A stretch of DNA of 64,000 bases from Chiloscyllium plagiosum (lineage: Eukaryota): assembly GCF_004010195.1 (NCBI RefSeq), contig NC_057718.1:68914918-68978917 (forward strand), read 5' to 3'. Made by a program: the position numbers and the translations under genes. Under the pieces are notes generated by a model that saw only the letters and a program-made list of their open reading frames with translations, was not told the DNA's origin and ran no database searches. The stretch's first letter is position 1; each line of letters begins with the position of its first letter. Positions 3,202 through 32,082 of this stretch are shown piece by piece.

Positions 3202-3237
3202 ATTCGACGTTTCGGGCACAGGCCCTTCTTCAGGAAT
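3202..3237 (-). ncRNA. Minimal type I hammerhead ribozyme motif (family A), intact
   Basis: ATTC-CTGAAGA-A-GGGC(ctgt)GCCC-GAAA-CGTC-GAAT: stem I, core, stem II, GUC site. Confidence 0.8.
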
Positions 3238-5053: not shown

Positions 5054-5381
5054 GCAGCACAGTGGCTCAGTGGTTAGCACTGCTGCCTCACAGCACCAGG
5101 GACCTGGGTTTGATTCCAGTCTTGGACGACTGTCTGTGCAGAGTTTGCACATGCTCTCAGTGTCTGCGTAGGTTTCCTCTGGATGCTCCAGTTTTCTCCT
5201 ACAATCCAAAGATGTGCACGTTAGGTGAATTGGTCATGCTAAATTCCCCATAGTGTTAGGTGCATTTGTCGGGGTAAATATAGGGTAGGGGAATGGGTCT
5301 GTGTGAGTTACTCTTCGGAGCATCGGTATGGACTTGTTGGGCCGAATGGCTTGTTTCCATACTGTAGGGAATCTGATCTAA
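5054..5381 (+). mobile_element. HE1-like tRNA-derived V-SINE
   Basis: A box TGGCTCAGTGGTTAGC, B-box-like GGTTTGATTCC, V-domain, CR1-like tail. Confidence 0.85.
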
Positions 5382-5569
5382 TATGCCTGCCTTTTTGTGG
5401 CAAAGAATTGAACATTCTTTGATTCAGGCTAACCTTATCTATATTTGTAGTGCATGTAGTGCATTGATGGCAATATCAGTGTAATTTTCTGAATTAGTTT
5501 CATTTCTTTTTGTTGCTCTTGACTAGAAAAAAACATCCCCCCTCCCCCCCCCAATTCCATATTCTATCC

Positions 5570-6360
5570 TTCCATTTCTTTCACCTGGTCCACCTCCAAT
5601 GCCACCCTTCCTTTTCTCCAGTTCTGGGTGTAGGCTGTCAGGTGGTATAAGTCCACTGATTCCCACAACTACCCTGACTCTGTATCCTCCTACCCCATTC
5701 CTTTTCTGGACTCCTTTCCAGTCTCCAAGGTTCTTTGTCTCAGTTTGATGATGTCACTTTCTATATTTCTTCTTCCAATCAGTCTTCCTTTTTCCTTGAA
5801 TGCTGCCATCATAGCTGACAAGAGCTTTAACCATATCTGATCCATTTCCAAAGATATTGCTCTTACCCTCTTCTCTCACTCCTAGAACCATAAAAGGTTG
5901 CACTTGTCCTTCTTTTCCAAACCATGTGCCTCCATTTGAACAGATCATCCTCTGCCATTTCTGCCATCTCTAGTGTGATGCCACAGCCAAACACATTTTC
6001 TCTTCCTCATCCAACATTCCAAGGGGACTGTCCTTTTTGAAAAATCTCAATCACCATGAATACCTCCTTGCCTTCCCAAAGAAGCTCAACATCTGGTTTG
6101 TTACTTTCTTGCTTCTCCATATCCAAAACTTAAAACCCTCCTTGTACTTATTTTAAGTAAGCCTATTGTATTTACTGCTGACAATATGGTCTGTAATTTG
6201 TGGAAATTAAACAGATTGGGCAACCACTTTGATGAAAATCTCCATTTAATCTGCAAGGATGATCCTGGGCTTGTAATTGCTTGTTGATTTAATTCTCTAT
6301 CTCAGTCTCACTCCTTAGATCAAGGGCAAAGAAGTCAGTGAAGCTCAAAAGTACCTCATT
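5570..6360 (+). mobile_element. Old degenerate Neptune-type PLE remnant
   Basis: TATAAGTCCACTGATTCCCACAACTAC resembles the YKPTDSHSY-coding segment of the younger copies. Confidence 0.5.
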
Positions 6361-23863: not shown

Positions 23864-25126
23864 GGTCAGAACCCACATGACACCAGGCTAGAGTCCAACA
23901 GGTTTATTTGAAATCACAAGCTTTCGGAGCACTGCTCCTATGTCAGGTGTAGCAAAAATAAGCACACAGGCACAGAATTTATAGGCAGAGAGATCAAAAG
24001 ATCATGCAAATGGTGTGAGTGGCGAAATAGTAAGTCCCTGCAGGTGATCAAGAGTGTTCTACAGCGTGAGTAAAGTGTCAACAGCTGAATAGCAAGTGAA
24101 GGGATGATCTATGATCTGATTAATTGAAGCAGAGAGATAATTACAAAAATTAAAAATTAGATGATGTAGGAGACAAACCAAATAGCTGGGATAACATGAT
24201 AGGTATAACAGTCATATACCAAGGGTTTAACTAAAGTAACATGTAATCCAAAATTGTATAAACTAATTAAGGTAGAGAGATCATAACAAGTTATCAAGGT
24301 GATGGTGTCAAAACAGGACAGTAAGGAACCTTTTACAGATACAGAACAGTATGGTGGGGTTACCTGTAGTATGACGTGAACCCAAGATCACAGTTGAGGC
24401 CATCTTCATGGGTACGGAGCTTGGCTCAGTGATTCTGCATTATTGTGTATCTTTAAGGCTGCCTTAGAAGAGGCTTACCCAAAGATCAGAGGCTGAATGT
24501 CCTTGATTGCTAAAGAGTTCCCTGACTGGAAGGCAACATTCCTGTCTGGCGATTGTTGCACAGTGTCCATTCATCTGTTGTTGTAGCATTTGCTTGGCCG
24601 TGCCAAGATAACATGTCTCGGAGCATCCTTGCCTGCAGCATATGAGATAGACAACATTGGCCAAGTCACATGAGAATCTGCTGTGTATGTGGTGTGTGGG
24701 GTGGTGTTCCCACATGTGATGGTAGTATGCATGTTGATGATCTGGTATGTCCTGCAGAGGTTGCCATGGCAGGGTTGTGTGGTGTTGTTGTTAATATTGC
24801 CCTGTGATTATCTCTCTGCCTCAGTTAGTCAGATCATAGGTTATCCCTTCACTTGCTATTCAGCTGTTTAGACCTTACTCTCACCGTCTGGCACTTTTGA
24901 ATCACCTTCAGAGACTTGGTATTTAGCCTGTCGACACTCACGCACACCATTTGCATGATCTTTTGATCTCTCTGCCTATAAGTTTTGTGCCTGTGTGCTT
25001 CTTATCAGTTCACTTGATGAAGGAGCAGTGCACTGAAAGCTTGTGATTTCAAATAAATCTGTTGGACTATAACCTCGTGCTATGTGACTTCTGATGTTGT
25101 ACACCCCAGTGGTGGCACCTCCACAC
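23864..25126 (-). mobile_element. Family B Neptune-type PLE: GIY-YIG remnant between inverted pLTRs
   Basis: RFSCDLANVVYLICCRQGCSETCYLG (24464-24715, -); arms 23864-24145 vs 24805-25095 are reverse complements. Confidence 0.8.
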
Positions 25127-29192: not shown

Positions 29193-29947
29193 GTAAGCTG
29201 AGGAACATGATTTTTAATGCTTCGCTGAATACATTGTTATTCTGAACTCTTCGTCCACAGAGTGAATGATGCATTTCATTTAAGTTGCCAGTTGTAAATA
29301 CTCTGCTAACTACTTAATATACTGGAATAATGGTTATGCTATCAGAAATTTCAGTGACTGCATTGAGATGGAGAAAAGCCCCATAACGCAGGATTTGCTG
29401 GCACAGAATCATATGCTGAAATACCACAAAGACCTGAACAACAAATCAGAATAACTTTATCTCTACAACATTAACGAGAACGAAAAACGATTTAAGACAC
29501 AGATGATGTTATTTTCTGAGTAGTCGTAAATCTCTGGATCTCTCATCCCCAGAAGGCAGTGGTGGCGGGATCATTGAATATTTTTAATGTAGAAGTAGAT
29601 TTTTGACTAACAAATGAGCCAGTGGTTATGGTTGGGGGCTCCACAATCAGATCAGCCGTGATTTTATTGAATGTTCGAACAGGCTGCAGAGGTGAAATGA
29701 TTGTTCTTGCTGCTAAATGTTAGATTATTACCATGCTACAACATATTGAGCTCCAATGCATTTTTAAATGAAGCAATAAGATTTCAACAGCAAATCTCCA
29801 TTGGTGATTTCCTAATTTATATCATTTTAGGGAGGTAAGGGCTACTTTGGATAAAAGCAAATTACTGTGGATGTTGGAATCTGAAACCAAAAGAGAAAAT
29901 GCTGGAAAATCTCAGCAGGTCTGGCAGCATCTGTAAGGAGAGAAAAG

Positions 29948-29986
29948 AGCTGACGTTTCGAGTCTAACTGACCCTTTATCAAAGCT
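29948..29986 (-). ncRNA. Hammerhead motif, U3:A8 variant
   Basis: AGCT-TTGATAA-A-GGGTC(agtta)GACTC-GAAA-CGTC-AGCT. Confidence 0.7.
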
Positions 29987-30157
29987 AAAAAATGGGAGAA
30001 ATAAGGAGGTATTTATACTAGACTGAAAGAGGGTGAGTCATGGCTCCAGAAGCAAAGGTAATAATAAAGAGGTGATAGTGACAGTGCATAGAGAGATTAA
30101 AAGAGAAAATGCTGGAAAATATCAGCAGGTCTGGCAGCATCTGTAAGGAGAGAAAAG

Positions 30158-30196
30158 AGCTGACGTTTCGAGTCTAACTGACCCTTTGTCAAAGCT
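30158..30196 (-). ncRNA. Hammerhead motif, U3:A8 variant
   Basis: AGCT-TTGACAA-A-GGGTC(agtta)GACTC-GAAA-CGTC-AGCT. Confidence 0.7.
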
Positions 30197-30466
30197 AAAA
30201 AATGGGAGAAATAAGGAGGTATTTATACTAGGCTGAAAGAGGGTGAGTCATGGCTCCAGAAGCAAAGGTAACAATAAAGAGGTGATAGTGACAGTGCATA
30301 GAGAGATTATAGGGAGGTTAGGAGCTGTGAATGACCAAGGCTGAAGCCGGTGCTGTGTGAAAAAATATGTGGGGTTTGGGGGAATGGGTGAAGCAGAGGC
30401 AAAATGGAAAACAGGGGAGAAGGGGAGCAAAGGGTAGCAAATACCTCCCTATTTCTCCCTTTTTTT

Positions 30467-30505
30467 AGCTTTGACAAAGGGTCAGTTTGACTCGAAACGT
30501 CAGTC
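30467..30505 (+). ncRNA. Hammerhead motif, U3:A8 variant (stem I 3' arm altered)
   Basis: AGCT-TTGACAA-A-GGGTC(agttt)GACTC-GAAA-CGTC-AGTC. Confidence 0.6.
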
Positions 30506-30759
30506 TTTTCTCTCCTTACAGATGCTGCCAGACCTGCTGATATTTTCCAGCATTTTCTCTTTTGGTTAAGGGCTACTTTGAATATCGCCATAATAATTGG
30601 AGGGAAAAAGTGAAGTTGCCCATTACTGCACTTTATTTTAGGAATGTTCCATCACCAGGTTGAAAAGAAATCACATGTCGGAAATATGAATTCAAAGATT
30701 AAGAGCAGAAGTAGCCCATTCATCCCTCTACAAACCAATAAGGTTATGGGTAAGATCAA

Positions 30760-30925
30760 ATGACTGCAGATGCTGAAATTTGAACTGAAAACAAAATGCT
30801 GGAGATCACAGAAGGACAGACAGCATCCATGGAGAGAAAGCAAGCTAATGTTTCGAGCCTAAATGACGACTTCAGAGCTTGCTTTCTCTCCATGGATGCT
30901 GTCTGTCCTTCTGTGATCCCCAGCA
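30760..30925. mobile_element. Fold-back PLE pLTR with decayed hammerhead
   Basis: GACAGACAGCATCCATGGAGAGAAAGCAAGCT / AGCTTGCTTTCTCTCCATGGATGCTGTCTGTC inverted arms. Confidence 0.7.
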
Positions 30926-31451
30926 AGTTTGAATTTTAAGGTCATATCCTGTTTGTACTCCCAATTCCATCTACTGCTGATAACTTTTGATTCCCCGACC
31001 TAACAAGAATCTATTCACGTCCATCTTAAAATATTCAGTGACCCTATCTCTACTACTTTGAGGCAGACAGTCTTAAAGTTGCACAAACCTCCAAAAATAA
31101 AATTCCTCATTTCTGATCCTAAGATGACACTTAATTTTAAGATTGCCCCTAATTCTGAACTGACCCACAATGGTAGAAATCCTTTCAACATTCACCTTGT
31201 CAAGATCATTGAAGACCTTATAAAATTCAAATTACCCTCTCTCTTTTAAATTCTGGTGAATGGAACTCCAGCCTATTCAATCTTTCATCAAAAGAATACC
31301 TGTTCAGTCTCGATATCAATCCAGTAAACCTCTTGTGGATTGCCTTCTTTAAACAAAGAGACCAAAATTGTGCAGACTCATCATGCAGAGGGTGGTACTT
31401 ATACAGAACAAGTTGCCACAGGAGGTGATGGAGGTGAGTAGAATGTAACAT

Positions 31452-32082
31452 CAGAAATGACAGCCAGACTACTGAGACCCCTCGGAATCCTAGTAGCACA
31501 CAAACCCACCAACACTCTCAAACAAAAACTAACAAACTTAAAAGACCCAGTACAACCCAGGGACAAAACCAATGTAATCTATAAAATTCCATGCAAGGAC
31601 TGCCACAAACACTACGTAGGACAAACAGGAAGAAAGTTAGCCACCAGGATAAATGAACACCAGCTAGCCACAAAAAGACATGACCCCCTCTCCCTCATAG
31701 CCCTACACACGGATGAAAAAAAACACCATTTCGACTGGGACAACACATCTATCCTGGGACAGGCTAAGTAAAGACATGCCAGAGAATTCCTAGAGGCCTG
31801 GCACTCCAACCACAACACCATAAGCAAGCACATAGATCTAGATATCATCTATCAACCCCTCAGAAAACGAACAGGAAATGACATCACCACAAACCCCAGG
31901 AACCCCATCCAGGAGAAAGATATAAATAGAAAGCAGGAGACAACAGCTTCGCTTCACTTGGAGGTCGCCACTGATGATGTTACCTAGCCAGGTAATGAAA
32001 CGTCTGGATATCAAACCTATAGCTCAGTGAGGAAACCTACACCCTAAACCTCAACCTGAGCTATAAACCTTCACAAACCTTG
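31452..32082 (+). mobile_element. Poseidon-type PLE 3' part (GIY-YIG + pLTR) inserted in a CR1 remnant
   Basis: NVIYKIPCKDCHKHYVGQTGRKLATRINEH; TSD AGAATGTAACAT at 31440-31451 and 32083-32094. Confidence 0.9.
31968..32007 (+). ncRNA. Minimal hammerhead ribozyme motif (family D), intact
   Basis: CCA-CTGATGA-T-GTTACC(tagcca)GGTAAT-GAAA-CGTC-TGG. Confidence 0.8.

Follow-up and report, generated by a model that had tools for sequence, protein, structure and literature searches.

The window analysed here is a stretch of 64,000 nucleotides from Chiloscyllium plagiosum (contig NC_057718.1). Between the two copies of a target-site duplication (29836-29849 and 30567-30580, 14/14 identical and extending on neither side) lies an insert of 717 bp, which, as the first-pass annotation had stated, is non-coding and contains a 210-bp tandem repeat as well as an inverted partial copy. 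Directly inside the left duplication copy is a 39-bp tail (29850-29888, minus strand), delimited by the ends of related arms, which is present at this end of the insert only and in full-length copies continues into the start of an open reading frame (ORF). It is followed by two units of 210 bp, here termed B2 (29889-30098) and B1 (30099-30308), both on the minus strand and 98% alike. By sequence comparison, B2 corresponds to the 3' UTR end and pseudo-LTR module of a Penelope-like element (PLE), and the 3' end of B1 coincides with the tail-less 3' end found in other family members. The remainder comprises a single-copy piece of PLE 3' UTR (30309-30438, minus strand), 5'-truncated at 30438, and an inverted, tail-less pseudo-LTR arm of 128 bp on the plus strand (30439 to 30566 or 30567). 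The insert contains no coding sequence because its start falls ~180 nt downstream of the ORF stop in related PLE copies.

B1, B2 and the inverted arm each carry a hammerhead ribozyme core of the form AGCT-TTGA(C/T)AA-A-GGGTC-loop-GACTC-GAAA-CGTC, so that all three cores flagged previously could be located. Two are minimal type I hammerheads on the minus strand: that of B1 (30158-30196, core UUGACAA) has its U3 at 30192 and is predicted to be cut after C17, position 30162, and that of B2 (29948-29986, core UUGAUAA) has its U3 at 29982 and is predicted to be cut after C17, position 29952. The third is on the plus strand at 30467-30505 (U3 at 30471, C17 at 30501), and its helix I is weakened by a one-base deletion in the 3' strand. 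In hammerhead numbering (Figure 1 text of PMC4209133), helix I has 4 bp (AGCU/AGCU) and the core reads U3-U-G-A-N-A8-A9; an extra A leads into helix II, which has 5 bp and is closed by G10.1-C11.1, and GAA and a palindromic ACGU follow, the latter replacing helix III. The 3-8 pair (U3:A8 in all three copies), the extra base after position 9, the G10.1-C11.1 pair and the palindromic positions 15-16 are those of minimal PLE hammerheads, in agreement with the earlier assignment; Cervera & de la Pena 2014 (PMC4209133) report such hammerheads also in the fish PLEs Neptune and Poseidon. The motif had been expected to escape searches for CUGANGA, and Rfam indeed lists no hammerhead among 26 matches at E<=10, so that standard searches miss the U3:A8 form. 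Small PLE hammerhead variants reportedly cleave as dimers (said to be RNA Biol work of 2017), and the tolerance of the hammerhead 3-8 pair is said to have been treated in RNA in 2007.

Sequence comparison shows that the insert does not stand apart as a non-coding element of its own but represents the 3' UTR and pseudo-LTR of an autonomous PLE. A query made of the unit plus the tail gave 2,619 candidates in the genome, of which 40 were scored, the best others being 93-95% identical. Related copies (L034, L036 and others) extend upstream into a frame with reverse transcriptase (RT) motifs, a C-x4-C-x2-C linker and a GIY-YIG end, and the idea of a stand-alone non-autonomous element was rejected on this ground. 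The 497-residue open stretch of copy L034 has an Atlas best match of 0.95, to a cluster with HTH_animal in 91%, RVT_1 in 76% and GIY-YIG in 11%; Pfam support for the ORF is below the cut-off (RVT_1, E 0.0013 in L036; GIY-YIG, E 0.17 in L034), with no Pfam match for the family ORF at 0.001 and no matching sequence in a PDB search. When 20 loci were picked with the 5' part of the ORF, 17 had the tail or the entire hammerhead module immediately before the ORF, which starts some 35 nt after the tail. According to Craig et al. 2021 (PMC8557442), PLE insertions show 5' truncation, a partial tandem forming the pseudo-LTR, an adjacent inverted copy and a 30-40-bp tail on one end, and a CX2-5CxxC linker before GIY-YIG marks Neptune and Nematis PLEs. 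As in the endonuclease-positive PLEs, we find here a 5'-truncated partial tandem, an adjoining inverted copy, a tail at one end, and a hammerhead in a pseudo-LTR whose module is repeated ahead of the ORF, and RT followed by GIY-YIG in one ORF is found in other copies, not at this locus. Truncation, tandem, inverted copy, tail and, for the family, the linker between RT and endonuclease are thus common to this insert and the Neptune/Nematis insertion units of that paper, from which the window copy differs in keeping no ORF. Judged by the linker motif, which Neptune shares with Nematis, the parent is likely of the Neptune type, and the earlier proposal that a PLE RT mobilizes the element is likely correct.

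In the 3.56-Gb assembly searched, one stem II pattern yields 1,323 exact U3:A8 cores, which are not due to chance because the backward control pattern gives none. The same pattern yields 626 C3:G8, 40 U3:G8 and 123 C3:A8 cores (backward controls 0), all of these counts being family sizes and not events, and hence not usable as a covariation statistic. When C or T was permitted at position 3 and G or A at position 8, 291 cores were found in family context, and 100 of the 100 listed read U3:A8, so that the swap, with the 3-8 pair kept, is a family trait as had been supposed and not a private mutation. The C3:G8 matches represent sister families with different loops and flanks, relative to which the core differs only at positions 3 and 8 and at the free position 7. 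The C3:A8 loci were considered as an evolutionary intermediate subfamily and this was discarded for most of them: 16 of the 123 were fetched and 13 of these look like truncation or inversion junctions in which the intact helix I strand is absent. Contigs from three organism labels show no difference at position 3 or 8 (40 of 44 rows shown). The U3:A8 family is young and homogeneous, with ~2.5% divergence from the column majority among the best 29 copies. Because U3:A8 is fixed in the family, the swap is a single founder change, not three or a thousand events; the three copies of the window, which all come from one insertion of one family, give no independent evidence of the selection first suggested.

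The ends of family copies bear on which RNA is copied. An anchor lying downstream of the cut has 2,626 exact matches, and the 5' ends of the first 75 (68 loci, one contig) were mapped, counting the A of AGCT as +1, which corresponds to 29986 (minus strand) in B2; a cut product would start at +36. Exactly at +1 begin 22 of the 75, and 44 fall within -2 to +4, including 8 at +3; the remainder are at +6 to +11 (9), +16 to +29 (8), +39/+40 (3) or further upstream than -16 (11), and none (0/75) is at +34 to +38, that is, at the cut site. Upstream of 29989, summed contig depth drops ~ninefold in X1 and X2 and still further in X10. Among the ORF-bearing loci, 5 of 20 begin at +1 or +2, and in 9 of 20 a second module, running from +1 to the no-tail end, is placed behind an ORF fragment. 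In several copies (L210, L214, L216, L218, L220-L224), these modules follow ORF fragments cut at varied points and resemble strong-stop cDNA that jumped elsewhere on the template. A TATA-like word is present at -31/-32 in 34 of the 45 U3:A8 arms having one (110 scanned) and at -29 to -31 in all 6 of the C3:G8 arms having one (34 scanned). In the window, the corresponding boxes, putatively promoters, are at 30010-30017 in B2 (first T 31 nt upstream of +1) and at 30220-30227 in B1 (31 nt upstream of 30196), both on the minus strand. The C3:G8 sister families have the same TATA spacing and an initiator-like TCAGTT or TCAGCT at +1, and for 23 of 30 C3:G8 loci the upstream sequence has no match at any other of them. 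Copy ends and box spacing together suggest that transcription likely starts at the first base of the ribozyme, against which the one RNA run examined shows no pile-up of starts. No paper on a TATA box or transcription start at such hammerheads was found, most subscription papers lying outside the searched set.

Pyrimidine runs ending in AG flank the ribozyme (29933-29942 and 29984-29995, minus strand, and the B1 equivalents) and resemble 3' splice sites; one has its AG at +1/+2, the other precedes a short ATG frame, and no spliced junction is seen among the copies. A 3' splice site as the cause of the pile-up of 5' ends is disfavoured, as the mode lies at the A of the AG (22 arms at +1 and 8 at +3) and the copies are not joined to any constant exon upstream. 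The lack of copies starting at the cut site indicates that the copied RNA is likely uncut, which speaks against the cut or circular RNA that had been proposed as the mobilized form. For a Poseidon PLE of the green anole, Frangieh et al. 2024 (PMC11167929) showed that the tail is delimited by two internal RT start sites, that uncut RNA serves as the main substrate and that mutating the ribozyme leaves insertion in vitro unaffected.

These observations also bear on whether the ribozyme still matters to the family. It could be a dead relic, U3 and A8 being neutral hitch-hikers on a successful master element and their pairing a coincidence, with A8 arising by CpG decay at C7-G8. In keeping with this are the single founder event, the anole mutants, the absence of copies beginning at the cut site and the existence of the CpG route (C7-G8 occurs in 3 of 100 listed C3:G8 sister cores). 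We nevertheless regard it as unlikely, given that the core changes are limited to positions 3, 8 and the free position 7, that those at 3 and 8 restore a Watson-Crick pair, that the mixed U3:G8 and C3:A8 cores are rare (40 and 123, most of the latter examined without an intact helix I strand), and that Schistosoma PLEs and further natural hammerheads have the same swap, for which in vitro activity is stated (PMC4209133, PMC3088659). Restoration of the pair and recurrence in distant elements favour selection on the core in the active lineage; U3:A8 is thus best seen as a compensated change, probably retained since the core must still work in that lineage. Contrary to what the first-pass annotation had implied, the variant is not novel: PMC4209133 reports U3-A8 in the hammerheads of Cercyon PLEs of Schistosoma mansoni (~1,300 hits), and Perreault et al. 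(PMC3088659) report natural U3-A8 covariation in hammerheads, citing earlier in vitro activity. In a literature set outside which most subscription papers fall, a search on hammerhead and U3-A8 retrieved PMC4209133 alone, one on U3A8 or C3U/G8A together with Penelope found none, and no relevant report of a cartilaginous-fish case was found.

The 210-bp tandem itself is exceptional. Its B1|B2 junction occurs once in the 3.56 Gb with up to 2 mismatches allowed, the tandem is present in 0 of 30 loci taken from the 291-core search, and the ten same-strand core spacings in the examined loci are 50, 121, 210 (this locus), 528 and six at 1,241-2,256. The 3' ends of the family are bimodal, 42 of 75 at unit positions 209-223 (no tail) and 28 of 75 at 247-249 (end of the tail), and the junction lies at unit position 210, that is, at the preferred no-tail end. 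The two end classes match the two RT start sites of the anole PLE (PMC11167929), which suggests RT re-priming. On the other hand, B1 and B2 have 6 substitutions in common that are seldom or never present in 29 other copies, and at the two of these sites that lie within the inverted arm, this arm has the family letter, so that a post-insertion duplication or a second template would fit better than one template; at unit position 188, by contrast, B1 agrees with the inverted arm. The second unit thus appears to have arisen once, either because RT primed anew at the no-tail site or through a local duplication afterwards. That the tandem is an artefact of assembly is hardly credible: no listed contig bridged the junction (the compared stretch, 29550-30130, included only 32 nt of the second unit) and assembly gaps occur near some family copies, but the 4 differences between the 210-bp units argue against an exact assembly duplication, the locus contains no N and the junction falls where family copies preferentially end. 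In contigs of three organism labels, the match extends from the left flank into the insert by 27, 28 and 18 nt, short of the 31-letter rule, so that sharing of the insertion is no more than suggested.

The locus had been described as a stand-alone retrozyme. It does hold two consecutive units (B1 and B2), each with a complete hammerhead, which corresponds to the working definition of an active non-LTR retrozyme in Li, Clavereau & Pollet 2026 (bioRxiv 10.64898/2026.07.22.740005). The single occurrence of the junction in the genome means that no retrozyme monomer has been amplified, and with no second 210 spacing in the examined loci a 210-nt monomer family was rejected. The hammerheads, with a 4-bp helix I and no loop 3, are of the minimal PLE type and lack the 6-bp helix I and loop 1-loop 2 contact of the canonical type I. 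The insert is the truncated end of an autonomous PLE and not a retrozyme in its own right. A newborn retrozyme may still be envisaged, in which a transcript from the TATA box of B1 would fold as a dimer, be cut at 30162 and 29952 and release a 210-nt circle that the PLE RT could copy. Two complete cores in tandem, each with an intact TATA-like box upstream, would suit it, as would a nested double-hammerhead fold that can be written on the natural sequence (on paper a 30161-29952 monomer is possible) and the model of retrozyme birth from PLE ends in the same preprint. Several points nevertheless make it highly improbable. The junction is unique; the modelled dimer fold lies 12.4 kcal/mol above the minimum-energy fold; predicted monomer folds pair the core with the GUC triplet and do not improve on shuffled sequences (z -0.02 to -0.78); and in the predicted fold of a whole-insert transcript the inverted arm masks the B1 core. 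Among 202 RNA reads placed on the stretch, only 1 has at least 99% identity, and 12 RNA reads with loose ends at 30099 continue into ordinary 3' UTR, not into the tandem. These reads are from one poly(A) single-cell run, of which ~2% was read and whose library is unsuited to circles; it gave no junction reads and no listed pile-up of starts or ends, and a search of sequencing runs listed no RNA data set containing the sequence. In published work, 1 of 9 Xenopus tandem dimers was cut in vitro (bioRxiv 10.64898/2026.07.22.740005), minimal PLE hammerheads cut poorly in vitro, and the anole PLE hammerhead cuts only with protein (PMC11167929). A 210-nt circle from this locus, though conceivable, finds no support. 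Comparably doubtful, in our view a long shot, is a cap-proximal ribozyme switch, on messengers beginning with the hammerhead, that would fire only near a second copy; the chance tandem of this locus would then provide such a partner together with an intact promoter and be a retrozyme at birth that releases a 210-nt U3:A8 circle.

We therefore favour, with a probability of roughly 0.88, the reading that the insert is the 5'-truncated, partly tandem and partly inverted non-coding end of an autonomous PLE, likely Neptune, and was likely copied from uncut RNA. In the proposed model, RNA polymerase II would begin family transcripts with the first hammerhead base. The copy in the window belongs to a minority of family arms that run past +1, and because both of its arms do so, its template would have been a read-through RNA. 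The element's own endonuclease would make staggered nicks 14 nt apart, and RT would prime one arm at the tail site and the inverted arm at the no-tail site, the second 210-bp unit being added once by either of the two routes described above. The ribozyme of the family, probably weak, would need a partner copy or protein and be dispensable for insertions, and this copy is likely now inert. The locus is, in sum, a standard PLE insertion with a published core variant and involves no new mechanism.

Besides the Neptune/Nematis insertion units, three known systems are closest. Like the family described here, the Cercyon PLEs of S. mansoni (PMC4209133) carry the U3-A8 swap in a pseudo-LTR, in ~1,300 copies with mostly single motifs, and share the extra base between 9 and 10.1, the G10.1-C11.1 pair and the palindromic 15-16, but they have a helix II of 7-8 bp instead of 5 bp and belong to another host and PLE family; U3:A8 here is presumably independent in origin. 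The anole Poseidon PLE (PMC11167929) resembles the present family in its two RT start sites bounding the tail, a tail continuous with the 5' region of the ORF, an uncut template and the absence of RNA ends at the cut, and differs in its canonical C3:G8 core and in an ORF that starts inside the ribozyme and not ~35 nt after the tail. Metazoan non-LTR retrozymes (PMC7229834; bioRxiv 10.64898/2026.07.22.740005), as here, consist of 150-450-bp tandem units each with a type I hammerhead, have low GC and long target-site duplications and derive from PLE ends. In contrast, those of 2020 (Cervera & de la Pena, PMC7229834) have canonical type I motifs, are amplified as dimers to multimers and give abundant circles, whereas the motif here is minimal and the unit exists once.

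Other PLE-like sequences are found nearby. A palindrome with 50-bp arms (98%) at 30797-30925 adjoins the insert; it is a head-to-head stub of a sister PLE with a decayed hammerhead at its centre and accounts for miRNA-like Rfam matches. A further PLE-like family (CTGAAGA-AGGGC stem) is represented in the window by seven minimal hammerheads with the canonical C3:G8 pair, at 47, 44701 and 47171 (plus strand) and at 3233, 16642, 47154 and 61502 (minus strand), of which 47154 and 47171 form a head-to-head pair and several have TCATTC at +1 and no clear TATA box. Hammerhead-like motifs of other families lie at 31971, 46014 and 28230 (plus strand), two of them reading U3 with G8, and GIY-YIG-like frames at 31442-31771 (plus strand) and 24464-24790 (minus strand). 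Elsewhere, family copy L035 holds a perfect 82-bp tandem array inside its ORF (5345-5799, oriented).

For work on these elements, retrozyme and ribozyme censuses should permit the U3:A8 swap, because more than 1,300 such hammerheads are missed by CUGANGA descriptors and Rfam. Should the tandem described here give rise to a circle, the proposed origin of retrozymes from PLE ends would be directly exemplified. Copies start sharply where the ribozyme begins, at TATA distance from a conserved box, which provides a testable map of the PLE transcript, and the C3:G8 and U3:A8 sister families form a natural pair for testing the role of the ribozyme in PLEs.
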